DNA of 33,743 nt from a bacterium. Lineage in GTDB: Bacteria; Patescibacteriota; Minisyncoccia; Portnoybacterales; JAGGTM01. This document shows positions 153 to 31,612 of this stretch, piece by piece. The stretch is taken from positions 1 to 33,743 of the forward strand of contig JAGGTM010000044.1 of assembly GCA_021163745.1 (NCBI GenBank), given 5' to 3'. Positions within the stretch are counted from its first letter, which is position 1. Each line of letters starts with the position of its first letter. Position numbers and translations under genes: made by a program. The notes below the pieces were generated by a model. That model did no database searches. It was not told the origin of the DNA and was given only the letters and a program-made list of their open reading frames with translations.

Positions 153-220
153 GATTAGAGTTCTGTTTTCTTTTTTAGCTTATAAAGGAAGGTTTCTATC
201 TTTTAAAAGAATGTGATCCC

Positions 221-260
221 TCCCCGCCTAAATTTTTCTTTGAAAAAACTTAGGCGGGGA
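221..260. other. GC-rich stem-loop in the mreC-mreD spacer
   Basis: tccccgcctaa (221-231) pairs perfectly with ttaggcgggga (250-260). The 18-nt A/T loop adds about 5 further pairs. No adjacent U-tract on the minus strand, so it is not a canonical terminator. Confidence 0.6.
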
Positions 261-263
261 ATA

Positions 264-1070
264 TTAAGAAGAGGGTATTATAACAAATACATTTTCCAAT
301 TTATAAAAACAAACTGGTGAACTTACTTCTATCTGTTGAAAAACACGGGCATGCGAAGAAAAAATATTCTCTATTTTCCCCACCAGCAATCCTCTAGGAA
401 ATATAGAATCCAGACCAGATGTAATTACAGTCTCATTTTTGGAAACCTTTTCTTTAACGGGCACCAAATCAAGAAACAACTTTGCCCCATCCCCTCTCAG
501 AAGAGCAGGGATCCTTGATTCCTGAGTCATAACACTAACCTTTGAACTAGGGTCAATTATCAGAATAACTTCACAAGAATGAGAGAAACATTTTCTTGTT
601 TTTCCTATCAAAATATTACCGCCAATGATAACAGGCATATTCTTTTTTACCCCGTCTGAAACTCCCTTATCTATAAGAATAAATCTATTTAAACTTTGGA
701 GCCCATACCCTATAACTCTTGAAAAGATCAGTTTTTGTTCCTCTTCGCGTTCTATGTTTAACTGTTTTTTTAAAAATATATTTTCTTTCTCCAGTTCTTT
801 TAATCTTGTTACTTCTCCCTTTAGTTTTAAATTCTCTAACCTTAAACTCTGATTTTCGTGATATACTCTTTTTGCAAAACAAACCCAAGAAATAAAATCA
901 TCTATACTAAGACCAACTTTATAAACATATCCTTGAACTGGAGAAACTACTTTATAAAAGAAATTCTTTGGTAAACTCAATGCTCCCAAAAAATTTAAAA
1001 AAATAAGCCCGAGAACTATGGCTGTCAAAATTATGGGTTTGAAAAATTTCTTGAAATTAAATGAAAACAT
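264..1070 (-). CDS. mreC: Rod shape-determining protein MreC
   Basis: 268-aa ORF with an N-terminal TM segment, a coiled-coil region (LRLENLKLKGEVTRLKELEKEN) and a C-terminal beta domain typical of MreC. It lies between mreB and mreD. Confidence 0.85.
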   Translation of the reverse strand: MFSFNFKKFFKPIILTAIVLGLIFLNFLGALSLPKNFFYKVVSPVQGYVYKVGLSIDDFISWVCFAKRVYHENQSLRLENLKLKGEVTRLKELEKENIFLKKQLNIEREEEQKLIFSRVIGYGLQSLNRFILIDKGVSDGVKKNMPVIIGGNILIGKTRKCFSHSCEVILIIDPSSKVSVMTQESRIPALLRGDGAKLFLDLVPVKEKVSKNETVITSGLDSIFPRGLLVGKIENIFSSHARVFQQIEVSSPVCFYKLENVFVIIPSS

Positions 1071-2650: not shown

Positions 2651-3892
2651 TTAGAATCTAAATTTCGAGACGATACTATCGATCTTTACTAATTCCGCCT
2701 TATCTTCATCTCTCCTCTTAACCTCCACACATCCCTTAGATAAAGTCCTTTTGCTTACCACAACCCTATAAGGTATTCCTATCAAATCCGCCTCCGCAAA
2801 CTTTTCTCCGGGAGATTTATCTGTTCTGTCATCGTACAACACTTCTATGTTATTTTTCTTAAAATCTCTGTAAATTTTATCGCTTATTTTTTCTATTGCT
2901 TCTTTGTCTTCTAACTTTATTAAGTGCACAGCGTAAGGAGCAACCTCTTCTGGCCAAATAATTCCGTTTTCATCATTATTTGTTTCCACTATTGCACCCA
3001 TTAACCTCCCTAAGCCAATCCCATAACATCCCATTATAACCGTTTTATTCTTCCCATTTTCATCTTTGAAGGTAAGATTAAATGCCTTGGAGTATTTAAT
3101 TCCGAGTTTAAAAATATTTCCCACCTCTATTGCATTTTTCTTAACAAAATTATTATTTCCGCAAACAGGACATCGGTTAAATTCTGATTTTACCTCTTTA
3201 TTAATAGCAAAGTCGCATTCGGAGCAAATGTGAATAGTATCTTCTCCCGCCGAACAAATGGTCTGAAATTCGTGAGAATAATCAGAGAAAGTTCCTCCGG
3301 AAGCCAAAGTTAAATAGGTAAACGGGAGAACACCGCATCTCTCAAAAATTTTGAAATAAGCATTTTTTACCCTCTCATAATAATTATCTAAATCGCTCTT
3401 TGAATAATGAAAGGAATAAAGATCCTTCATTATAAATTCCTTTGTCCTCAAAATTCCAGATTTTGGCCTTAACTCATCGCGCATTTTTACCTGAATTTGA
3501 TAAACGTATTTTGGCAAATCTCTGTAGGAAGAAATAACCTTTTTAGCCAAAGGGGTAATTATTTCCTCATGAGTCCAAGACAAAGCATACTCTTTGTCAG
3601 ACTGGGACTTTAATTTAAATATTTCTTTAATGCCCCATCTATTTGTCTTCTCCCAAAACTCTTTTGGATGTAAAGCAATCAAGTAAACTTCTTGAGCATC
3701 TATATTATTCATTTCTTCTCTTATAATGTCTTCAATTTTTTTATGCACTCTGTAACCCAAAGGCAAAAAATTGTAAAGACCTGAAGAAACTTTATCTATA
3801 AAACCGGCGCGAATTAATAGTTTAGCGCTCACGCTCTTTTCGTCTTTGGGTGCTTCTTTTAGTGTTTTTGAAAAAAGTTTTGATTGCCTCAT
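2651..3892 (-). CDS. proS: Prolyl-tRNA synthetase, minimal bacterial type without the INS editing domain
   Basis: Class II motifs are present (LRTKEFIMKDLYSF, GCYGIGLGRLMGAIVE) plus a C-terminal anticodon-binding domain. I start at the ATG at 3892 (MRQSKLFSKTLKEAP matches the canonical N-terminus). The track start at 3898 is a TTG inside the repeat. Confidence 0.9.
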   Translation of the reverse strand: MRQSKLFSKTLKEAPKDEKSVSAKLLIRAGFIDKVSSGLYNFLPLGYRVHKKIEDIIREEMNNIDAQEVYLIALHPKEFWEKTNRWGIKEIFKLKSQSDKEYALSWTHEEIITPLAKKVISSYRDLPKYVYQIQVKMRDELRPKSGILRTKEFIMKDLYSFHYSKSDLDNYYERVKNAYFKIFERCGVLPFTYLTLASGGTFSDYSHEFQTICSAGEDTIHICSECDFAINKEVKSEFNRCPVCGNNNFVKKNAIEVGNIFKLGIKYSKAFNLTFKDENGKNKTVIMGCYGIGLGRLMGAIVETNNDENGIIWPEEVAPYAVHLIKLEDKEAIEKISDKIYRDFKKNNIEVLYDDRTDKSPGEKFAEADLIGIPYRVVVSKRTLSKGCVEVKRRDEDKAELVKIDSIVSKFRF

Positions 3893-3895
3893 AGA

Positions 3896-3996
3896 CAAAG
3901 CTCAAAACTCAAAGCGCAAAGCTCAAAACTACAACTCAAAGCGCAAAGCGAAATTTTCTTTTTCAGCTTTGAGTTTTACGCTGTAGCTTTGTGCTA
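3896..3996. repeat. Mosaic intergenic element copy E2 (short)
   Basis: CAAAG-type heptad array, then a turn (aaattttctttttc), then the complementary ctttg array. Bases 3921-3967 are the reverse complement of E1 1285-1332 (about 43 of 48 nt). Confidence 0.8.
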
Positions 3997-6587: not shown

Positions 6588-7876
6588 CAATTTATTCTTC
6601 TTAAATAGGGAATCTCTCTGCGCAGTTCATAACTGCGCAACTTTTTCTTTTTGGAGCCTAATTTATAAAATTCTAAAATCCATCCATTTTTTCTTCTTAC
6701 GGGTCTCATTTCTATAATATCTCCTATTGTGCAACAATTGCGTAGTTTCACTTCCAATCTTTTCCTACCTACTCGTCCTATGAAAAACACAGCATCCTTC
6801 TCCAATTTTTTCCTTATAGGAAAGAGGGGTATCTTGTCACTGCTCTTAATATAATCCTTAATGGATTGATTTAACTTGAAATTGTATAATATAAATTCTT
6901 TTCCTTTTCCTCCTTTCACAAAATATAATTTTCCATCCTCTAAAGATTTAAATATCCACCCATAATATTTAACAAACCTGAATTGCGATAAAGTTAATTC
7001 AGAACCAATCGGAGCACCGTCTTTACATACTCTGCCTTCTATAACGTTTCCCTTATATTTTCCGAGGAAGAATTTTTTTTCTCCTTTCCTATTTCTGCTC
7101 CTTACTTTAATTTTAATTCTGGGTATTTTTCTCTTTTTTTTAAACTTTCCTTCTGCTATAATTTTTACTACATACCTCCTATTTGAAATATTGGCGATTT
7201 CCTTAATTCCAGAAACCAGCAGAATCCCTAGTGTTCTTTTCACTCTTTTCCCCCAGAATGCTCCGGAAAAACTTCTGGAGACTAATCCAGTGTGCCAAAA
7301 CAAATAGAAAATCAACTTACATAATTCCTCTTCATTAAACTCGCCTAAAAATTTTTTCCAATATCTCATTTCATCATCTTTTTTCTTCCAAGGATTAAGA
7401 AGAATAAGAACCTGGGTCAGTATATCTATCATCTTCTTCTTATCTCTTTTTAACAGATAATTTAAAATAGCCCCTGTTCCTTCTCTGCTATATTTTTCTA
7501 TAAAACTCAATTTCCTTATTCCGTTCAAAAATAATTTACCTGGCTCCCTCAAAGATTTTTCAAACTCTTCTACTATTTCTTTCCATGTCTGACCTCGAAC
7601 CACCAGATTTTCTAATGCTTTCAGGGATACGCATGAAAATAATTCGGATGGAATTCCCAGTTTTCTTGCCCGATCGAATAATTTCTCTCTCTTTTTCTCT
7701 AAAAGATATTGTTCTTTTGATAATATCCTCAACTTATACCTTTTTTGAAGTATTTTAATGCTGTTTGGGTCTCCCTGTCTTGCTTTGTCTAATAATATCT
7801 TTCTTCTCTCTTTCTCTTTATCTAAAAACTCTTTAATCTTCGCACTGCTTCTATACATATCTTTAACTTTAAACAT
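6587..7876 (-). CDS. Hypothetical highly basic protein, 429 aa
   Basis: Long uninterrupted ORF preceded by the strongest SD in the window (AAAGGAGGTGAgaagaaATG). It has its own terminator. No motif I recognise. The C-terminal half contains two similar modules (FFLGKY..IEGRV..GWIFKS..YFVKG and FFIGRVGRKRLEV..GWILEFYKLG). Confidence 0.8.
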   Translation of the reverse strand: MFKVKDMYRSSAKIKEFLDKEKERRKILLDKARQGDPNSIKILQKRYKLRILSKEQYLLEKKREKLFDRARKLGIPSELFSCVSLKALENLVVRGQTWKEIVEEFEKSLREPGKLFLNGIRKLSFIEKYSREGTGAILNYLLKRDKKKMIDILTQVLILLNPWKKKDDEMRYWKKFLGEFNEEELCKLIFYLFWHTGLVSRSFSGAFWGKRVKRTLGILLVSGIKEIANISNRRYVVKIIAEGKFKKKRKIPRIKIKVRSRNRKGEKKFFLGKYKGNVIEGRVCKDGAPIGSELTLSQFRFVKYYGWIFKSLEDGKLYFVKGGKGKEFILYNFKLNQSIKDYIKSSDKIPLFPIRKKLEKDAVFFIGRVGRKRLEVKLRNCCTIGDIIEMRPVRRKNGWILEFYKLGSKKKKLRSYELRREIPYLRRIN

Positions 7877-9040: not shown

Positions 9041-9868
9041 CTATTTTCTTATAAATTTGGGCGGAGTCAAATTTTCAATTACTTTATCAAATAAATCTAA
9101 ATATCTAATATTTTCTTCATTAATCAAAAATGGAAGTAATTGTTTTTTAAGAGATTTTAATTTTGGTTTAACCTGAGAATATCTTTTAAGAATTGCCTTT
9201 TTGTAGTCATCTAAATTTTTTATTTTAACTTTCTTTAAAGTGATGAAATTTGGAAAAATTCCTTTAGATAAAAGCCAAACCACATCATAGAAATCTCTTG
9301 CTCGGGCTGGTTTTCTGTAAATTATGGCTAAACTTTTTTGAGATAAAATTGTTTCTAAGGTATTAGAAACAACTGTTTCAATTACTCCAAATCGATTTAA
9401 AAGAAAAACTTTTTGAAAGACAAGATAATCAGGTTTTGTCATTTCAATTTTAATCATCAACTTTTCTTCCTTGAGTGGAGAAAGGTTAACTTCTTTTAGT
9501 AGTCCGCCGCCAAACTTTAAATACCCTCGCCAAATGTTCTTTCTAACTTTTTTAAACTTAAATTCCAACTCAAATCCTTCTTGAATTAATTTTTTAGTTG
9601 CATTTTTAAAAATTCTTTCTAAAACTATTGTTTTTAGCCCTAAATTGTCAAAATCCAAATCTTCAGAAAACCTATCTAAATTATGAAGCAGTCTCAAACT
9701 TGTGCCTCCAATAAAACTAATTTGAGAAGATTCTTTTTGTTGATAAAGATACTTCAAAAAATGGCATTGAAGATACTCTCGAAGAATAGCCCGCTTTTTA
9801 AAAGAAGGAATTCCCAAGGACTTTCCCATTTCTATTATATTTTCCCAGTCAAATTTTATTTTTTTCAT
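9041..9868 (-). CDS. abiEii: AbiEii/AbiGii-family nucleotidyltransferase toxin
   Basis: 275 aa with the N-terminal motif FIGGTSLRLLHNLDRFSEDLDFD typical of DUF1814/AbiEii nucleotidyltransferases. It overlaps the upstream antitoxin-like gene by 20 nt. Confidence 0.8.
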   Translation of the reverse strand: MKKIKFDWENIIEMGKSLGIPSFKKRAILREYLQCHFLKYLYQQKESSQISFIGGTSLRLLHNLDRFSEDLDFDNLGLKTIVLERIFKNATKKLIQEGFELEFKFKKVRKNIWRGYLKFGGGLLKEVNLSPLKEEKLMIKIEMTKPDYLVFQKVFLLNRFGVIETVVSNTLETILSQKSLAIIYRKPARARDFYDVVWLLSKGIFPNFITLKKVKIKNLDDYKKAILKRYSQVKPKLKSLKKQLLPFLINEENIRYLDLFDKVIENLTPPKFIRK

Positions 9869-10478
9869 AAAATTGATAAATTTTTTTAGTTATCTCAAAA
9901 ACTCTTTTATTCTGAAAAACTTTAGCCATTTCAAAACAAGTTTTCCAAGAAAAAAAATTATCAAAACAAAATCTTTCTTCAGAGAAATCTTCTATTTCTT
10001 TCAATCTTTTTAAATTAAAATAAATAAAATCTAAAAGGGCTTTTTCGGGCACAGCAATGTTGTAAAAAAACTTTTTATCATTTGAATAAACACTTTTAAA
10101 TCCGAAAAAGTAATCTTTTTTAATATGACAAAACCAAAAATCACCAAAAATGGTTTTAAACTTCCTGGTAGTTAGCGGAGTTAAAGAAATTACCTTTTGA
10201 GAGATATCCGGAATAATTCCATAATAATTTAAAGCAGTTTCTAAGCTAATATAAGAAGGGGAAAGAAGTTTTTCGGCGAGATAAAACTGATCAGAAATTT
10301 CTACTTCTGGAAACCAAAAGAGACCTTTTTTTATTTTCTTTAAATAACCTTTTTTAATCCATTTATTAAGATCAACCTTCAAAGTAAAAAGATTGACTTC
10401 CGGAAACCATTTTAAGATATCAGCAAAAGTAAATAGCGGATATTGAGAAATTTTTTTTCTTAAAAGTTCAAATCTCAT
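9849..10478 (-). CDS. abiEi: AbiEi-like antitoxin / transcriptional regulator
   Basis: Start trimmed to the ATG at 10478 (MRFELLRKKISQYPLFTFADILKWF, a winged-helix-like N-terminus). The longer track ORF would overlap the glycosyltransferase. Its position and overlap with abiEii fit the type IV TA layout. Confidence 0.65.
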   Translation of the reverse strand: MRFELLRKKISQYPLFTFADILKWFPEVNLFTLKVDLNKWIKKGYLKKIKKGLFWFPEVEISDQFYLAEKLLSPSYISLETALNYYGIIPDISQKVISLTPLTTRKFKTIFGDFWFCHIKKDYFFGFKSVYSNDKKFFYNIAVPEKALLDFIYFNLKRLKEIEDFSEERFCFDNFFSWKTCFEMAKVFQNKRVFEITKKIYQFYEKNKI

Positions 10479-10554
10479 ATATTTAAGAAAGTTATACTTT
10501 TTTATAACTTTCTTAATTGTATTATAAAAATACTTCAATGTCAACTTTATAACT

Positions 10555-11670
10555 CTAAAAAACTTCTGTAAGCACCTCAAATGTCTTTTTTGCCGATATA
10601 TTCCAACTAAATTTTTTTGCGTTCTTTTTTCCCTCTTCAATCAACTGTTTCCTTAACCCTTCACTTGAAATAACACTGTAAATTCCTTCTGCAATACTAT
10701 AAATGTTATGAGGATCAACAAAAACCGCTCCCTTTCCTGCTATTTCAGGCATAGAAGAAATATTAGAGGTTATAACAGGAATACCCGAAATTTGTGCTTC
10801 CAAAATAGGCATCCCAAATCCCTCATAAAATGATGGCAGGACAAAAACATCTGCATTTTTTAATAACTCCCATTTCTTTCTCTCTTTTACATATCCCTTA
10901 AATTCTATTTCAGAGTTCATGCTTTTGTATTCTTTCATTGTATAAATTTTACTCCACCCATATCCCTTTGGACCTATCAATATTAATTTATGAGGAATAT
11001 TATATTTCTTTTTTAGAAAATAAAATGCAGAAATGAGACCAAAGATATTCTTTTTAAGCTCAATCCTTCCTATGAATAGAATATAAGGATGTCCTACATA
11101 ATTACGGGTCAAATTCCTTTTCCAAACCGGTCTTTTAACTCCGTGATAAATTACACTTATTTTTTGTGGATCTGTATCATACAATTCCACTAAATCATTT
11201 TTCGTATTTTCCGACACTGCAATAATCTTCTTAGAATATTTTAATGCATACAAAGTAGTAAATTTAAGATACTGCCTTTTCCAAAAAGAATAATAATAAG
11301 GATAATGCTCGTATTCCAATCCGTGAATAGTCACTATAGAATTTTCTGGATGAATTAACGGCAAAGTATGAGCGGGAGAGAAAAATATATCCGGTTTCCT
11401 AAAAACAAACTCCGAACTTAATCTTATCTGCGTCCACATAGGAAATTTCCACTTTAATTTCTCGATTTTTAAATTGGACTTAGCAAGAGTTTTAAATTCG
11501 TCGAATACATAAATTTGCTTATAGTTTAATTTATCGGGAAGATATAAAATAAACTGATGATGTTTTGCTTCAGGTAATTTTAGTAAACTTTTTATCAATT
11601 GATAAGAATACTCCTCAACTCCTGTTTTACGTTTTCTCGTCAATGCAGTAGAATGTATTCCGATTTCCAT
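10555..11670 (-). CDS. Glycosyltransferase family 4 (GT-B)
   Basis: 371 aa with FYEGFGMPILEAQISGIPVITSN, the classic GT4 E-x7-E region. Confidence 0.85.
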   Translation of the reverse strand: MEIGIHSTALTRKRKTGVEEYSYQLIKSLLKLPEAKHHQFILYLPDKLNYKQIYVFDEFKTLAKSNLKIEKLKWKFPMWTQIRLSSEFVFRKPDIFFSPAHTLPLIHPENSIVTIHGLEYEHYPYYYSFWKRQYLKFTTLYALKYSKKIIAVSENTKNDLVELYDTDPQKISVIYHGVKRPVWKRNLTRNYVGHPYILFIGRIELKKNIFGLISAFYFLKKKYNIPHKLILIGPKGYGWSKIYTMKEYKSMNSEIEFKGYVKERKKWELLKNADVFVLPSFYEGFGMPILEAQISGIPVITSNISSMPEIAGKGAVFVDPHNIYSIAEGIYSVISSEGLRKQLIEEGKKNAKKFSWNISAKKTFEVLTEVF

Positions 11671-11745: not shown

Positions 11746-12753
11746 TTATCGTTTTACCATTATTGCCCTTTTGTAAAATTCTAAATGTTCCAAAGCGATA
11801 CCTGTCCCTCTTGCTACACAAAGCATAGGGTCATCTGCAATAAATACAGGAACTCCAGTTACATTAGTAATCAGTTTATCTATATTCTTTAATAACGCCC
11901 CTCCACCACTCAAGGTCATTCCTTCGTTTATAATATCGGCACATAGTTCAGGAGGGGTTTCTCTTAAAACTGTTTTTATTGTATCAATTATCTCGTACAG
12001 TTGCTCTCTTATTGCACCGGCAATTTCATTTGTTTTAACTTTTACAACTTTAGGCAATCCATCTATTAAATCTCTCCCTTGAATCTCCAATTCTTCTTCC
12101 TCTTCTTCTGAAACAGCGCTTCCTATTTCTATTTTTATTTGCTCGGCTGTCTTTTCTCCAATTGCTAAATTATGTTTTTTTCTTATGTATTCGGAAATAG
12201 ATAAATCAATCTTGTCTCCTCCAACTCTGGTAGAGGCACAAGATACAATTCCACCCAGTGAAATTACCGCCACTTCCGTAGTTCCTCCCCCTATATCTAT
12301 AATCATGTGACCACTGGGTTCATTTATAGGAATCCCTGCACCAATAGCTGCCAAAATCGGCTCTTTGATTAGATAGGCATGCTTTGCGCCAGCTTTAACA
12401 CTTGCTTCTGTAACTGCCCTTCTCTCTGTAGAAGTGATTCCCGCGGGAACCGCTACCATAACTTCTGGTTTAAAAACCCTAAGTCTGCCTAATGCCTTTT
12501 TAATAAAATACCGAAGCATAGCCTCGGTCACACGGTAGTTTGCAATAACCCCGTCCTTCATCGGTCTATAAGCCACAATACTATCTGGTGTCTTCCCCAG
12601 CATCTCCTTTGCTTTCTTGCCAACAGCCAAAATACGATTGTCATCGACAGACACCGCTACTACGGTAGGTTCATTAATAATAACCCCCTTCTTTGGAATA
12701 TAAACCAATGTATTTGCGGTACCTAAATCAATGCCAATTTTTTTGATAAACAT
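11746..12753 (-). CDS. mreB: Second MreB-family actin-like protein
   Basis: Roughly 60% identical by eye to the MreB at 1461-2516 (IDLGTANTLVY, IDIGGGTTEVAVISLGG, GGGALLKNIDKL). Start set at the ATG at 12753 (MFIKKIGIDLGT). The track start at 12783 is a TTG inside repeat E3. Confidence 0.9.
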   Translation of the reverse strand: MFIKKIGIDLGTANTLVYIPKKGVIINEPTVVAVSVDDNRILAVGKKAKEMLGKTPDSIVAYRPMKDGVIANYRVTEAMLRYFIKKALGRLRVFKPEVMVAVPAGITSTERRAVTEASVKAGAKHAYLIKEPILAAIGAGIPINEPSGHMIIDIGGGTTEVAVISLGGIVSCASTRVGGDKIDLSISEYIRKKHNLAIGEKTAEQIKIEIGSAVSEEEEEELEIQGRDLIDGLPKVVKVKTNEIAGAIREQLYEIIDTIKTVLRETPPELCADIINEGMTLSGGGALLKNIDKLITNVTGVPVFIADDPMLCVARGTGIALEHLEFYKRAIMVKR

Positions 12754-12762
12754 GATAATATA

Positions 12763-13320
12763 AGCGCAAAGCTCAAAGCGCAAAGTGTAAAGCTAAAGCG
12801 TAAAACTTAAAGGTTATTAAAATATCTCAAATCTCACCCAACACCACTCTGGACTCCACAGTGGTGCTGGGCAAATCTTAAATCTACATCTCAAATCTTA
12901 AAACAAATTTAAGCTCAAAGCTCAAAGTGCAAAGTGCCCCGAAAGAAAGCCTGCGGCTTCCTACGGGACAGGCAAAGCTGAAGCGTAAAGCTTAAAGCTT
13001 AAAAGTAATTAAATCCTAAATTCAAAATCCTAAATTTTTACCCGCCCAAGTTTTGTTTCACAAAATTTGTACGGGCAGGCAAATCCAAATGACCAAAATT
13101 CAAAATTCAAAATGCCCACCCCCACCTTAATCCTCCCCTCCGACTTATGTCGGAGGGGAGGATATAGAATGGGGAGGGGTATTCGTTTTGAATTTGTAAT
13201 TTTGAATTTGGGATTTGTTTGGAATTTGTAATTTGGAATTTGGGATTTTAAAATTGTAGCTTTGCGCTATAGTTTTGCATGCTCTGTAGAAAACCGCAGG
13301 ATTTCCTTCGTGTCGCTTTG
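12763..13320. repeat. Mosaic intergenic element copy E3 (largest regular copy)
   Basis: Contains CAAAG heptad arrays and hairpin 12837-12871. Module C lies at 12936-12969, with a degenerate inverted copy at about 13276-13312. A K-type hairpin lies at about 13041-13078. The P module spans 13114-13183 with a 13-bp perfect core stem (13132-13161). Complementary gaatttg/ggatttg arrays run 13186-13250. Confidence 0.85.
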
Positions 13321-13322
13321 AT

Positions 13323-14585
13323 CTAATTATCTCTCACCCTTCTAATATCTGCTCCAATTTTAGAAAGCCGTTGTTCTATTTCTTCGTACCCTCTGTCAAT
13401 TTGATAGATATTCTCAATTTCTGAACGACCGGACGCTAAAAGACCTGCAATAATAAGAGCAATTCCTGCCCGAATATCGGGCGATATCAATTTTCTTCCG
13501 TATAGCTTAGTGGGCCCTCTTACTAAAACTCTATGAGGATCGCACATTAAAATATTCGCACCCATCTGATTTAAAATATCTGTATAAAATAACCTCCCTT
13601 CGAAAATAACCTCTTGTACCAAAGAATCGCCATGCGCCTGAGTCAAAAGAACAGTAAAGGGAGGTTGTAAATCTGTAGGAAATCCCGGGTATTCTTTTGT
13701 TTTTATATTAACTGCTTTTAATTTAAAAGGCGGAATAACTTCTAAATAATTACTTCCCGTCTTGAAATTTACTCCTGCTTTTTTTAAAATCTCCAGAAAT
13801 ACTTCTAAGTGCTCCGGAATAATACCCGAAATTTTTATTCTGCTTTTAGTTGCACCGGCCAAAATGGCAAAACTTCCTGCCTCTATTCTATCCGGAATAA
13901 TCCTACAATTAGCACCATTTAATTTGCTAACCCCATCTATGCAAATAGTATGAGTTCCTGCTCCCTTTATTTTCGCTCCGCATTTATTCAAAAAACTAAT
14001 CAAATTAACTACCTCCGGCTCACAAGCGCAGTTTATCAAAACACTCCTTCCTTTTGCAAATACTGATAAAATAATCATTGCTTCTGTTGCGGTTACAGAA
14101 ATTATAGGAAAAACAAACTTTGTTCCCTTTATTTTCTTTGCTTTAAGACAATATCCATTTTTAACGGGAATTATTTTTGCTCCGAATCTTTCAAATCCAC
14201 TTAAAAATATATCTCTCGGTCTCTGTCCAATCACGCATCCGCCAGGATGCGGGAAAAAACTTTCTCCCTCCCTTGCCAATAGTCCGGCAGAAATCAAAAT
14301 AGACGCCTTAAGCTTTTGGGAAATCTCTTGGTCTAAATGTGTAGTAGCAATGTCTTTTACCCAAACTCTATAAGTTTTCTCTCTGGTTCTCTCTATATTC
14401 GCTCCTATTTTTTTAAGTAACTCTATCTGCCTTAACACATCCTCAATCAATGGAATATTGGAAATAACACAGGGCTTTTCAGTTAAAACCGTTCCCGCCA
14501 GTATAGGAAGCGCAGCATTTTTTGCTCCGTTAACCCTTATTTCTCCTTCAAGTCTTCTTCCTCCCTTTATAATAAATCTCTCCAT
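13323..14585 (-). CDS. murA: UDP-N-acetylglucosamine 1-carboxyvinyltransferase
   Basis: 420 aa, full-length MurA pattern (GAKNAALPILA, active-site loop GGCVIGQRP, PGFPTDLQ). Confidence 0.95.
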   Translation of the reverse strand: MERFIIKGGRRLEGEIRVNGAKNAALPILAGTVLTEKPCVISNIPLIEDVLRQIELLKKIGANIERTREKTYRVWVKDIATTHLDQEISQKLKASILISAGLLAREGESFFPHPGGCVIGQRPRDIFLSGFERFGAKIIPVKNGYCLKAKKIKGTKFVFPIISVTATEAMIILSVFAKGRSVLINCACEPEVVNLISFLNKCGAKIKGAGTHTICIDGVSKLNGANCRIIPDRIEAGSFAILAGATKSRIKISGIIPEHLEVFLEILKKAGVNFKTGSNYLEVIPPFKLKAVNIKTKEYPGFPTDLQPPFTVLLTQAHGDSLVQEVIFEGRLFYTDILNQMGANILMCDPHRVLVRGPTKLYGRKLISPDIRAGIALIIAGLLASGRSEIENIYQIDRGYEEIEQRLSKIGADIRRVRDN

Positions 14586-15570: not shown

Positions 15571-15611
15571 AGAACGTTCTGTGGACTAAACTAATAAGCA
15601 GAAATTACTAA

Positions 15612-15880
15612 CGAAAATTCAAAATGCAAAAATCAAAAATCAAAACAACATTCAAGCGCAAAACTTATTAAAATTCCAAATTCAAAATTACAAATTCAAA
15701 ATGAATACCCCCTCCCTTCCTATGTCCTTCCCCGACTCGTGTCGGAAGAGGATTAAGATGGGGGCGGGTATTTTGAATTTTGGATTTTGGCCATTTGGAT
15801 TTGCTTGCCCTCCCAGGTTTTGTCCCCGCCCGCCGCAAATTTCTTCGAAATTTGGGCGGGCAAGCAAAACTTGGGCGAAT
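15612..15880. repeat. Mosaic intergenic element copy E4 (divergent spacer)
   Basis: CAAAATT/CAAATTC arrays, a P module at 15704-15772 (aataccc...gggtatt), complementary ttttgaa/ggatttt arrays, and a nested K-type hairpin at 15808-15878 with an inner 14-bp stem (15828-15861). Confidence 0.85.
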
Positions 15881-15883
15881 ACT

Positions 15884-15911
15884 TTGCCAATTCACTCCAT
15901 CTTGATATAAT
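15884..15911 (+). promoter_or_regulatory. Candidate sigma70-type promoter with extended -10 (leaderless PEGA-gene mRNA)
   Basis: TTGCCA (15884-15889), 16-nt spacer including the TG, then TGaTATAAT (15903-15911). Only 8 nt separate the -10 element from the ATG at 15920. Confidence 0.5.
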
Positions 15912-15919
15912 AAAAAATA

Positions 15920-21993: not shown

Positions 21994-22070
21994 TTTTATT
22001 AAATAAAATTGTACTTGCTAATCACTTTGTAACGATTAAATAAAAGCAATTAATTTTTAAGTAATGGTGT

Positions 22071-22387
22071 AAGCGCAAAACTCAAAGCGCAAAACGCAAA
22101 GCGCAAAACGCAAAGCCACAGCGTAAAACTTAAAGCTAATTTATTTAAATTCCAAATCCCAAATTACAAACAAATTCAAAATTCAAATGTTCAAAATTTT
22201 GTTTTGAATTTTGAATTTAACTACTTTTGCGCTTTGCGCTGCAGTTTTGCCTGCCCCGTAGAAAGCCGCAGGCTTTCTTTCGGGGAGTTTTGCGTTTTAT
22301 GCTTTGCGCTAAAATTAGTTTTGAATTTTGGTCATTGTTTCGAATTTCGAATTTTTAATATTCAACTCGTTAACTCGTTAACTCGTT
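22071..22387. repeat. Mosaic intergenic element copy E5
   Basis: CAAAG/CAAAAC arrays and CAAATYC/CAAAATT arrays that turn directly at 22190-22215 with no P module. Module C is in inverted orientation at 22254-22285. An AACTCGTT x3 array lies at 22364-22387. Bases 22121-22198 match E6 30836-30920 apart from a one-heptad indel and about 5 substitutions. Confidence 0.85.
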
Positions 22388-22417
22388 AATAGAAATTTTC
22401 GCTTTACCCTCAAACTT

Positions 22418-29903: not shown

Positions 29904-29930
29904 AAAAATAGTAACGATATTTAAGTTTTT

Positions 29931-30317: not shown

Positions 30318-30417
30318 AATAAATACTCCACCGCATTCTAAAATATACCCCGAAAACAAAAGGCAAAAACAAAGGGGTATACAAGGACCTTTTAAATTTG
30401 GAAATATGTATATTTAC

Positions 30418-30445
30418 TTTATAATTTATTTGTTTTCCTTGTCAA
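30418..30445 (-). promoter_or_regulatory. Candidate sigma70-type promoter upstream of speH
   Basis: On the minus strand: TTGACA (30445..30440), a 16-nt spacer, then TATAAA (30423..30418). It lies about 100 nt upstream of the speH ATG. Confidence 0.4.
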
Positions 30446-30454
30446 TAATATTAT

Positions 30455-30607
30455 TTATCTTCTTCTACCTCTTTTTCTGGTAGTCCTCTTCTTTGTAGTA
30501 GCCTTTCTTCTTCTGGTAGTCTTTCTTCTAGTTGTTCTTTTTGCCGCTTTTTTTCTTGTCGTTCTTTTTCTGGTGGCTCTTTTCCTGGATGTTCTCCTTT
30601 TTGCCAT
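30455..30607 (-). CDS. Candidate small Arg/Lys/Thr-rich basic protein (50 aa)
   Basis: Not in the ORF track. Manual translation gives MAKRRTSRKRATRKRTTRKKAAKRTTRRKTTRRRKATTKKRTTRKRGRRR then a stop. It has TTRK-like internal repeats, ATG start and TAA stop. It is the longest open frame in an otherwise ORF-free 950-nt region. There is no clear SD, but most genes here lack one. Confidence 0.4.
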   Translation of the reverse strand: MAKRRTSRKRATRKRTTRKKAAKRTTRRKTTRRRKATTKKRTTRKRGRRR

Positions 30608-30739
30608 ATAATTTAACGTCAATTTAACCGAAATTAATCAGTTAATTGATGCATATTTTTTAAGATACCCCCCTACGGCTATTAAGCCGTAGTATGAGAG
30701 TAAATATCGACCTTTCTTTTCTAGATTAGAAAAATATTT

Positions 30740-31306
30740 CAATTCAAAATTCAAAATCATTTTTAAGCGCAAAACTCAAAGCGCAAAGCGCCCCGAAGGA
30801 AAGCCTACGGCTTTCTACGGGGCAGGAAAACTATAGCGTAAAGCTTAAAGCTAATTTATTTAAATTACAAATTACAAATCCCAAATCCCAAACAAATTCA
30901 AAATTCAAATGTTCAAAATTCAAAATGAATACCCCTCCCCCCTCATTCTCCCCCCTCAAAGAGGGGGGAGATTAAGAGGGGGGTCTCCTCCGCCGTAATT
31001 TTGTTCCAGAAAGCTAAGGCTGTTCTAATTATTGAGAGTAAATTCTGAGTTTTCTCGCAACCCTATTTGTGTGACAAAATTACGGCGGGGGAGGATTAAA
31101 GTAAGACCACTTCAATTCCTCCCCCTCCCCTTGGGAGGGGGAGGATTAAGGAGGGGGAGGGTATTTTGAATTTTGCTTTGCCCTTGTAATTTGCGAAGCA
31201 AATTGTTTAGGGAGTTTTGACTTTTGAGATTTGAGATAAATTAGTTTTGAATTTTGGATTTTGGTCATTTGGATTTATTTGGGATTTGTGATTTGTAATT
31301 TGGAAT
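30740..31306. repeat. Mosaic intergenic element copy E6 (expanded)
   Basis: Module C at 30790-30823. CAAATYC/CAAAATT arrays at 30856-30927 are mirrored by arrays at 31243-31306 that run up to the hpf stop. The P region is expanded to 238 nt (30928-31165). It holds perfect hairpins at 30948-30970 (10 bp) and 31117-31145 (13 bp), and a 15-bp stem (30990-31004 with 31074-31088) enclosing a 69-nt loop. Confidence 0.85.
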
Positions 31307-31612
31307 TTATTTATACTTGTATCTTTCAATCTGCCTTATTAAACTTTCCTTAATTTCGTCTATGGCTAAATAAATATCCCAACTTTCTGATTCTGCACGA
31401 AGAAGTTTTCCGGGCAAAGAAATATTTGCTTCTGCATAATAAACATTCCCTTTTCTATGATGCCTGCTTGGTTTCCCCACTTCTACTTCTATCTTGACTA
31501 CTTCTTGGTCTATTCTTTTCAAAAATTTCGTTAAGCCACCAATACGCTTTTCTATGTATTCTTTAATAGACGGAGATAAATCTATATTAGTTGTTTTGAT
31601 AATAATCTGCAT
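31307..31612 (-). CDS. hpf: Ribosome hibernation promoting factor (short HPF/RaiA, S30AE family)
   Basis: 101 aa with the beta-alpha-beta-beta-beta-alpha pattern. The N-terminus MQIIIKTTNIDLSPSIKEYIEKR is typical of HPF. Confidence 0.85.
   Translation of the reverse strand: MQIIIKTTNIDLSPSIKEYIEKRIGGLTKFLKRIDQEVVKIEVEVGKPSRHHRKGNVYYAEANISLPGKLLRAESESWDIYLAIDEIKESLIRQIERYKYK

Follow-up and report, generated by a model that had tools for sequence, protein, structure and literature searches.

The DNA analyzed here, called the window below, is the whole of contig JAGGTM010000044.1 (33,743 nucleotides, assembly GCA_021163745.1), a housekeeping region of ~33% G+C from an uncultured member of the Patescibacteria (Parcubacteria, Portnoybacteria-like), whose genes have their best protein matches in Parcubacteria/Portnoybacteria. 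Nearly all of the genes lie on the minus strand, and they include mreC, mreB, a proS-like gene, rseP, frr, holB, glycosyltransferase genes, an AbiE toxin-antitoxin pair, and murA, together with genes for ribosomal proteins, rpoA, ftsA, alaS, mnmA, ispB, speH, hpf, and murB. The larger spacers, designated E1 (1071-1460), E3 (12784-13322), E4 (15571-15919), E5 (~21996-22417, flanked by an infA-like gene and a 576-aa open reading frame (ORF)), and E6 (30318-31306), consist of 7-nt tandem arrays with embedded hairpin modules that are richer in GC, and the arrays form long, imperfect palindromes whose 5' half is made of xxCAAAx units and whose 3' half is made of the complements of these units. The subject of the present study is one of these modules, termed P, which sits at the centers of the array palindromes in E3, E4, and E6. 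P belongs to an already described class of repeats, the BoxC/PIT type, and is not a new class of element, while its mode of spreading is probably recombination or template switching between the arrays.

In one orientation, P reads AAT(A/T)CCC-Y1, TTAAT, Y2, a short loop, R1, (A)T(T/A)AA, and R2-GGG(T/A)ATT, where Y and R denote pyrimidine and purine blocks. Watson-Crick pairing of Y2 with R1 and of Y1 with R2 gives a hairpin with an internal loop, and there is mirror symmetry as well, because Y1 mirrors Y2 and R2 mirrors R1. The ends, AATACCC...GGGTATT, are terminal inverted repeats within a wholly palindromic element. Judging from this design, P is likely a non-coding homopyrimidine/homopurine mirror-repeat palindrome, a single strand of which could fold as a long hairpin or as an intrastrand triplex. 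The core pattern has five matches in the window against 0.18 expected, and a census by nhmmer placed P in E3, E4, E6 (two matches), and at 218-276; all copies are intergenic, and both orientations are represented. The copies, and the one palindrome center that turns without P, are as follows.

13114-13183, plus strand (TTAATCC on the plus strand): P module of E3, 70 nt, of the subfamily with a GAC...GTC apex, inverted relative to E4 and E6.
15704-15772, minus strand (GGATTAA on the plus strand): P module of E4, 69 nt, also of the GAC...GTC-apex subfamily.
30928-31165, minus strand (GGATTAA on the plus strand): P cluster of E6, 238 nt, with outer arms AATACCC...GGGTATT.
22190-22215, no strand assigned: center of the E5 palindrome without P, a direct turn equal to the apex block of the sister lineage (described below) minus 21 nt.
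218-276, minus strand: degenerate hairpin, a hybrid of P and the K module described below, just downstream of mreC and outside the arrays.

E3 and E4 hold one degenerate P unit each. The flanks caaaatgaataccc and gggtattttgaatttt are common to E4 and E6, and those of E3 are caaaatg followed by ccc, and ggggtatt-cg-ttttgaattt. The initial annotation had described these three spans, their conserved flanks, and the direct turn of E5 exactly as they are found, while it overlooked the inversion of E3, the tandem structure of E6, the fourth copy at 218-276, and the relation to the known BoxC/PIT/TMECO-type class.

The cluster in E6 is made of three tandem TTAAT-plus-hairpin units inside a single pair of outer arms. 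On the minus strand, the order is outer arm AATACCCTCCCCCTCC, unit 1, an 18-nt linker, unit 2, unit 3, and a closing TATT, where unit 1 is TTAAT-CCTCCCCCTCCC-AAG-GGGAGGGGGAGG, unit 2 is TTAAT-CCTCCCCC-GCCGTAATTTTGT-(69 nt)-ACAAAATTACGGC-GGAGGAG, and unit 3 is CCCCCCTC-TTAAT-CTCCCCCCTC-TTT-GAGGGGGGAG-AATGA-GGGGGGAGGGG. The units and the array arms around them, none of them assigned to a strand, are located as follows.

31117-31161: unit 1; on the plus strand, Y at 31117-31129, loop CTT, R1 at 31133-31145, loop TTA, and R2 at 31149-31161.
30985-31093: unit 2, or H2, in which the pyrimidine/purine arms of P are extended by an AT-rich, K-like stem.
30932-30984: unit 3, a complete small P with a perfect 10-bp hairpin at 30948-30970.
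30861-30930: left 7-nt repeat arm of the E6 palindrome, which pairs with 31240-31309 (70 nt, 81%).
31166-31309: right 7-nt repeat arm of the E6 palindrome.

Within unit 1, positions 31117-31145 form a perfect 13-bp hairpin. H2 has a perfect 15-bp stem (30990-31004 with 31074-31088), part of 28-nt arms that are 86% complementary, around a loop of 69 unique nucleotides (31005-31073), and its AT-rich stem resembles the K hairpins, with the pattern (A/T)A(G/T)TTTTGT...ACAAAA(C/T)T(T/A). The innermost 13 nt of the left array arm (30914-30926) are perfectly paired with 31163-31175, and on its right the cluster is flanked by the right half of the sister-lineage apex block. The predicted folds are far from chance, with z = -9.7 for 30915-31178 as DNA and z = -13.6 for the whole 571-nt E6 palindrome as RNA. 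Since E6 is base-for-base identical in six independent contigs (L001-L006, from ENA and JGI assemblies), the cluster is not an assembly artefact. The two perfect CT/GA hairpins and the 15-bp stem with its 69-nt loop had been correctly noted before, and had been interpreted as hairpin-into-hairpin insertion. That interpretation holds for the middle unit, with its AT-stem hairpin and 69-nt loop, and for a hairpin nested in another module, K, of E4, but the two CT/GA hairpins of E6 are placed in tandem and in the same orientation, so within E6 true nesting is confined to unit 2. The hybrid at 218-276, which has C-rich/G-rich outer blocks, an ATTAA loop, and an inner AT-rich stem with a short (3-4 nt) loop, is a paralogue of unit 2 without the 69-nt loop, and the existence of this short-looped paralogue indicates that the 69 nt of unit 2 are an addition at the hairpin tip.

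The mirror symmetry of the blocks places P among the triplex-motif repeats. BoxC/PIT/TMECO elements (Hoyne and Maher; Holder 2015, PMC4666352) lie between genes on one strand or the other, frequently as inverted pairs; they have no link to mobile elements (transposons, phages, or plasmids) and are associated with local instability between strains. With criteria of the ITxF type (three homopurine/homopyrimidine blocks in succession, each 6-15 nt long, with no more than one mismatch and loops of 1-6 nt, two of the blocks forming a Watson-Crick pair and the third being mirror-related), the three blocks of E6 unit 1, CCCTCCCCCTCCT, TCCTCCCCCTCCC, and GGGAGGGGGAGGA, show 13 of 13 duplex positions and 13 of 13 third-strand positions (Hoogsteen-compatible) with 3-nt loops, and unit 3 shows 11 of 11 duplex positions and a purine-motif third block matching at 11 of 11. 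When the whole window was scanned with published-style settings (stem of at least 9 nt, at most one mismatch, loops of 1-6 nt), strict triplex motifs appeared only at 30935-30984 and 31124-31158, both in E6, and none appeared in 30 shuffles. The copies in E3 and E4 are too degenerate to pass the strict criteria, and the TMECO consensus CCCTCNCCC-N3-6-GGGNGAGGG-N3-GGGNGAGGG, searched as a regular expression, had no match on either strand of the window. Strict TMECO membership was thus rejected, and P is filed in the general class because it lacks the literal consensus and because E3 and E4 are too degenerate.

The likeness to that class is nevertheless extensive. In both, a C-rich block is followed by a loop of 3-6 nt and by a G-rich block, which a short loop separates from a mirror G-rich block, and the second loop of type A TMECO is TTA, as in P of E6 unit 1 (PMC4666352). 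Both are intergenic and multi-copy, lie on either strand, often as inverted pairs (the basic P is the palindromic, paired form), and have no transposon, phage, or plasmid linkage. Loci of P also differ between close strains, as do array spacers that lack P, such as E1 and E5. P differs in its longer stems (11-13 nt versus 9 nt), in its basic form, which has four blocks and is fully palindromic, in its tandem clusters, in its position at the centers of 7-nt repeat palindromes, and in its host, a Patescibacteria genome instead of one from the Proteobacteria or Cyanobacteria.

P-like sequences extend well beyond the window. A degenerate pattern matched at least 118 loci in a scan of one genome per GTDB species, and the matches listed, whose hairpin complementarity the pattern did not impose, include Dehalococcoidia, Alphaproteobacteria, Nitrospirota, Bacteroidota, Ignavibacteriota, cyanobacteria, Planctomycetota, and several Patescibacteria. 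Among 43 distinct units from many phyla in these listed matches, the bases adjacent to TTAAT covary in mirror fashion (7.24 of 9, compared with 6.39 +/- 0.13 for permuted partners), as in the pairs xTC/CTx, TCC/CCT, CCC/CCC, and TCTC/CTCT. Copies of P were found at other sites in L010, L011, and two metagenome-assembled genomes (MAGs) of related Patescibacteria, AUK067 and SRR6823441_bin.30, which hold many 70-nt copies at array centers, in other contexts, and in tandem clusters. A different spacer of L011 contains three tandem TTAAT-plus-hairpin units closed by a single G-rich block, and the junction of units 2 and 3 in E6 is 94% identical over 63 nt to this non-orthologous L011 site. The subfamily with a CCGAC-N4-GTCGG apex is common to E3, E4, L011, L039, and L051. 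Only one match was found in 2.9 million viral contigs, where the motif is thus essentially absent, which means that it is not phage-borne. The idea that the motif always occupies the tip of a larger palindrome was rejected across phyla, since the palindrome score of the flanks equaled that of the control among the matches listed; there, the tip position is found only in the array-bearing lineages, namely, those of the window, L010, L085, L101, L108, L114, and the deltaproteobacterial MAG L013. A metagenome contig collection gave no match to patterns for the H2 arm and for the unit 2/3 junction, but known JGI loci were missed as well, the contigs of the window strain by the H2-arm pattern and L011 by the junction pattern, so these negatives are uninformative; JGI samples 3300017593, 3300016457, and 3300005099 appear to lie outside that collection, as exact patterns were unmatched.

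One conceivable explanation is that nothing moves at all and that the copies are convergent and non-homologous products of local slippage and palindromization of C-rich 6-7-nt repeats. By inspection, (CCCCCT)n or (CCCCCCT)n fragments make up the arms, the host spacers are built of slippage-prone 7-nt arrays, and similar motifs are seen in many phyla, all of which would be expected from such an origin. The non-repetitive features shared across loci and genomes (TTAAT/ATTAA loops, AATACCC/GGGTATT ends, and the CCGAC-N4-GTCGG apex), however, and the 94% identity of the non-orthologous junction over 63 nt would not be expected, and we regard this explanation as extremely unlikely.

Comparison with relatives showed that the centers of the palindromes turn over rapidly. 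Two micro-variants, L151 and L152, show 99.7-99.8% identity to the window, and a sister lineage of ~95% identity is represented by L133, L135, L137, L146-L150, and L153-L159. L151 has one single-nucleotide difference within Y1, and five of the nine single-nucleotide differences of L152 fall in a 51-nt stretch inside H2 (window 30989-31039); these differences mean that E6 is polymorphic within one population. L152 also has CCCCCATCTTAATCC (3097-3110) where the window has unit 3 (30971-30984), with a different left junction, which suggests a second structural allele of the E6 cluster in the same sample set, though the contig ends at the variant junction and an assembly effect is possible. In the sister lineage, a profile search found no P in 137 kb of loci covering the orthologues of E1 and E3-E6. 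Its E4 keeps both outer parts of the spacer and the unit of K and Q modules, but the center is 62 nt of AT-rich sequence instead of the TTCAAAAT-P-CATTTTGAATTT of the window. Its E3, E4, and E5 share an apex block of >60 nt, AAAATTCAAAAC-AAAATTAAGAAATTAAA-GTTTTGAATTTTGAACATTTGAATTTTGA (L146 11264-11545, 8689-9015, and 2180-2390, respectively), and the recurrence of the same block at the centers of three spacers points to concerted evolution, i.e., gene conversion, between dispersed arrays. Its E6 conserves the gene-proximal 470 nt (a G hairpin, a small basic ORF, and the upstream region of speH), while the whole array palindrome is replaced by other arrays that contain neither P nor the 69-nt sequence. 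P is also absent from the E6 orthologues of L010 (~83% nucleotide identity) and L011 (~86-90%), L130 (85%) makes a direct turn at the center of E4 without P, and AUK067 has only ~100 nt between murA and mreB. The reverse case exists too, as P lies at the center of the deoC-pfkB palindrome of L010 and not in that of the window strain. The series of empty and filled sites that the initial annotation had proposed is therefore a real allelic series in a shared array context, which starts with the minimal turn of window E5, continues with a 17-nt AT apex in E3, E4, and E5 of the sister lineage and with P in the E3 and E4 spacers of the window, and ends with the P cluster of window E6, and relatives do not all carry identical insertions. 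The differences between orthologues are block substitutions of the palindrome center together with adjacent array units, not clean insertions, and arrays without P (E1 and E5) also vary between close relatives.

The stability of the predicted RNA fold raises another possibility, namely, that the giant hairpin with its GC clamp works as a terminator, an RNase III site, or an mRNA stabilizer, or that the 69-nt loop is a small RNA, as had been suggested, and that selection keeps P at the tip. The RNA fold of the E6 palindrome (z = -13.6) is very stable; moreover, compensatory differences between subfamilies maintain the hairpin arms, and the spacers exceed the length that is usual in a reduced genome. 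The small RNA found no support, because no match to Rfam was obtained at the gathering threshold anywhere in the window, including 30987-31094 and the rest of the cluster, and only chance sub-threshold matches to hairpin families of no relation (up to 24.5 bits, mostly miRNA precursors) appeared at E <= 10 on 30850-31250; a promoter and terminator scan of E6 gave nothing above shuffles and no U-tract terminator; a BLAST search of loci L001-L131 with the 15-bp stem and the 69-nt loop found neither of them anywhere but at their own locus; and the loop is absent from the relatives L010, L011, and the sister lineage. Published BoxC/PIT elements, when tested, had neither promoter nor terminator activity (PMC4666352). 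A function in RNA is very unlikely in view of the inconsistent orientation (E3 is opposite to E4 and E6 with respect to transcription), the inconsistent gene context (E4 lies between divergent genes, and E3 and E6 lie between co-directional ones), and the absence of P, H2, and the 69-nt loop from sister spacers that do conserve the small ORF and the promoter region next to them.

P is one of several modules in these spacers. The others are the K, Q, and G hairpins, listed here.

1391-1427, no strand assigned: simple K hairpin of E1.
13041-13078, no strand assigned: simple K hairpin of E3.
15807-15877, no strand assigned: K hairpin of E4 with Q (~15828-15861) nested in its loop, the pair being conserved in the 95% sister lineage.
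30791-30822, plus strand: G hairpin within the left arm of E6; the left arm of E5 lacks it at the homologous position.

The simple K hairpins and the extra hairpin in the K loop of E4 had been reported initially and were seen again. Q has the form CCCGCC-CAAATTTC-TTCG-GAAATTTG-GGCGGG and occurs alone at two other loci, in L010 and in L001 just outside the window. Further G copies are found at 1225-1256, ~12937-12970, and 22254-22285 (reverse); the left arms of E5 and E6 are near-identical over ~150 nt up to the center, with the G hairpin added in E6. The near-identical sister strains L135 and L133 differ by a clean indel of 36 nt that is the G hairpin GCCTGCCCCGTAGAAAACCGCAGGTTTTCTTTCGGG (corresponding to ~1222-1258 in E1 of the window), and no direct repeat is visible at its borders (columns 236-271 of alignment A2). 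P, G, K, and Q are thus discrete modules that are present or absent at both paralogous and orthologous sites.

We estimate a probability of about 60% that P is a non-autonomous dispersed repeat of the BoxC/PIT/TMECO type, residing at the centers of array palindromes and spread mainly by recombination or template switching without a dedicated transposase. The arms on either side are mutually inverted repeats that recur at several loci; recombination or template switching can therefore copy, replace, or invert the center without any specialized enzyme, and we infer that this is the most likely route. Copies would be gained, lost, inverted, and swapped mainly via ectopic recombination, gene conversion, or replication template switching between homologous palindromic arrays, with the structure-forming center possibly acting as the site of breakage or stalling. 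A dedicated transposase would be unneeded, and P might have no sequence-specific cellular function beyond closing the tip of an intergenic hairpin with a very stable GC clamp. Centers are homogenized within a genome, as seen in the three identical apex blocks of the sister lineage and in the window spacers E3 and E4, both of which contain P.

Alternatively, P, K, Q, and G might be miniature mobile elements, which a trans-acting enzyme, either a single-strand transposase of the RAYT (repetitive extragenic palindrome-associated tyrosine transposase) or IS200-IS605 type or one of the IS3 type, would insert at the single-stranded apex of extruded palindromes, giving rise to nested hairpins. The IS3-family elements IS1397 and ISKpn1 insert into the loops of repetitive extragenic palindromic (REP) sequences. 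A comparable arrangement is seen in L132, an assembly 99.94% identical to the window, where the P/K hybrid (window 156-273) is replaced by heptamer arrays and W hairpins (12244-13887) that form a palindrome with an IS3-family element, recognized by its rve and HTH_Tnp_1 ORFs, exactly at the center; a short sequence similar to the flank just outside the right end of this insertion sequence (IS) is found at the E4 palindrome center in L147 and L148. Such transposition would also account for the discreteness of the modules and their occurrence in both orientations, the clean G indel between near-identical strains, the presence of Q both in the K loop and alone elsewhere, the apex position of all array-associated P copies in the window lineage, and the at least three P sites that differ between lineages of ~95% identity. 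The pentanucleotide TGAAT found at the borders of P in E4 and E6 is a candidate target-site duplication. On the other hand, no constant duplication was found, since there is nothing of this kind at E3 and no direct repeat is visible in the flanks of the P copies of L010 and L114. No GTAG or CGTC tag lies within or adjoining any P copy, so that membership among tagged REP sequences was rejected; no RAYT gene was seen within the ~55 kb of this genome that were covered, just as the window has no transposase gene of any kind, the Y1/HUH type included, and no tRNA or tmRNA gene. No parent IS with P-like ends was found in the window either, and the ends of the IS3-like element of L132, TGTGAAATGAG...TATTGACA, are unrelated to AATACCC...GGGTATT. 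Finally, the orthologues show substitution of the whole center and neighboring repeat units in place of simple insertion, and the flanks of the motif are non-palindromic outside the array-bearing lineages. We therefore consider miniature mobile elements a possible but unlikely explanation. The mobile palindromic units envisaged by the initial annotation are borne out insofar as the modules are discrete, dispersed, and present at some sites and absent from others, but not with regard to block substitutions, the lack of a consistent target duplication, and the lack of a linked transposase.

Several points weigh against spreading by recombination of a triplex-motif repeat. A trans-acting enzyme may sit elsewhere in the genome, ~55 kb of which were covered, and the 5-nt direct repeat TGAAT at E4 and E6 could be a true target-site duplication. 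The IS3-family element at the center of the L132 palindrome means that enzyme-mediated, apex-targeted insertion does occur in this genome, and the hypervariability of arrays that are free of P means that instability is not attributable to P itself. Moreover, the triplex is predicted from sequence, and its mirror symmetry could follow in part from arms made of short C5-6T tandem repeats.

Other known systems share some of these features with P. REP sequences, together with the bacterial interspersed mosaic elements (BIMEs) and REP doublets (REPINs) that they compose, are likewise said to be short extragenic palindromes that are dispersed, strain-variable, and arranged in mosaic clusters, and their tips are reportedly insertion sites for IS3-family elements, which may be compared with L132. 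P differs from them in having no GTAG/CGTC tag and no RAYT gene seen in the ~55 kb, and in that its arms are homopurine/homopyrimidine, whereas those of REP and REPIN are described as mixed GC-rich. MITEs, the miniature inverted-repeat transposable elements, are also small, non-coding, intergenic, and multi-copy, with terminal inverted repeats, but P is wholly palindromic, and neither a consistent target-site duplication nor a parent IS with matching ends was found for it.

The arrays themselves recall those of cyanobacteria, in which short tandemly repeated repetitive (STRR) heptamer arrays reportedly contain nested small dispersed repeats (SDR). As described, these systems share intergenic 7-nt tandem arrays, including a unit of the TTGGTCA type, tiny hairpin modules nested in the arrays and in each other, and presence or absence between relatives with no known transposase. 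Compared by description, the window differs in phylum, in the organization of its arrays as long palindromes, and in the size of P (60-70 nt versus 21-27 nt). Array palindromes occur in the window at 1071-1460, 3896-3949, 12784-13322, 15571-15919, 21996-22417, and 30740-31310, and their xxCAAAx-type units include TTGGTCA, as in cyanobacterial STRR2. An origin of the window in a cyanobacterium, which such STRR-like heptamers would suggest, was rejected in view of the best protein matches, which are to Parcubacteria/Portnoybacteria. The deltaproteobacterial MAG L013 has similar arrays with a central C/G hairpin (6680-6830 and 7630-7790). A search of one paper library found no description of heptamer palindrome arrays in the Candidate Phyla Radiation (CPR), and a search by sequence strings had no match. 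One might go further and suppose that the heptamer-palindrome centers are dedicated landing pads, at whose extruded tips a trans-acting system inserts or exchanges P, K, Q, and G cassettes and even IS elements, in this clade of Patescibacteria and perhaps also in other phyla that carry TTAAT-looped C/G hairpins beside heptamer arrays. We think this quite unlikely; if it were true, the arrays and cassettes would make up a previously undescribed system of genome architecture, similar to the STRR/SDR of cyanobacteria but spanning phyla.

Some additional observations were made on neighboring and similar loci. Between the E6 palindrome and speH lies an ORF of 50 aa (30455-30607, minus strand; MAKRRTSRKRATRKRTTRKK...), which is extremely rich in Arg, Lys, and Thr, has internal repeats, is preceded by a conserved hairpin, and is kept in L010, L011, and the sister lineage (L153-L155); it had no match in NCBIfam. 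The spacer between speH and ispB is 27 nt in the window (29904-29930) versus 249 nt in the sister lineage (L153 4388-4636), where it holds 8-nt arrays (AACGGGTT/AACTCGTT), and in L011 it is 365 nt (3004-3368), with a P module and three tandem units that are flanked on both sides by the inverted repeat GCTAACCGCTTTGGTAAC. The AbiEii/AbiEi pair (window 9041-10640) is missing from the sister lineage (L133 392-2067), where an unrelated 398-aa ORF is found instead, on the opposite strand and at another position, between mreB2 and the first of the glycosyltransferase genes. In the MAG binchicken_co219_311 (L084 250-1079), long tandem arrays are built of 33-36-nt units, each a hairpin of the type CCCCTCCC-GCAA-GGGAGGGG plus a GGTTGGAAGTGA spacer, and they end in a TTAAT-looped motif after a conserved 25-nt sequence, TCTCTGTCAGATCAGCTCTTTTTGC; the same MAG has at least 15 such array loci, with compensatory variation at the hairpin tips.

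P is a clear case of fast spacer turnover. It reveals no new mechanism. If the reading of P as a recombining repeat of the BoxC/PIT type is correct, triplex-motif repeats of this type would extend to the CPR, and the window would provide a natural, population-level case of the instability proposed for such motifs, given that alleles differ at 99.7% identity and the motif is wholly absent from a sister lineage at 95%. It would also mean that the reduced genomes of the CPR can hold spacers of 0.3-1 kb made of palindromic heptamer arrays with swappable hairpin centers, and such spacers would help to explain why the contigs of these MAGs are short, while offering markers for strain typing.

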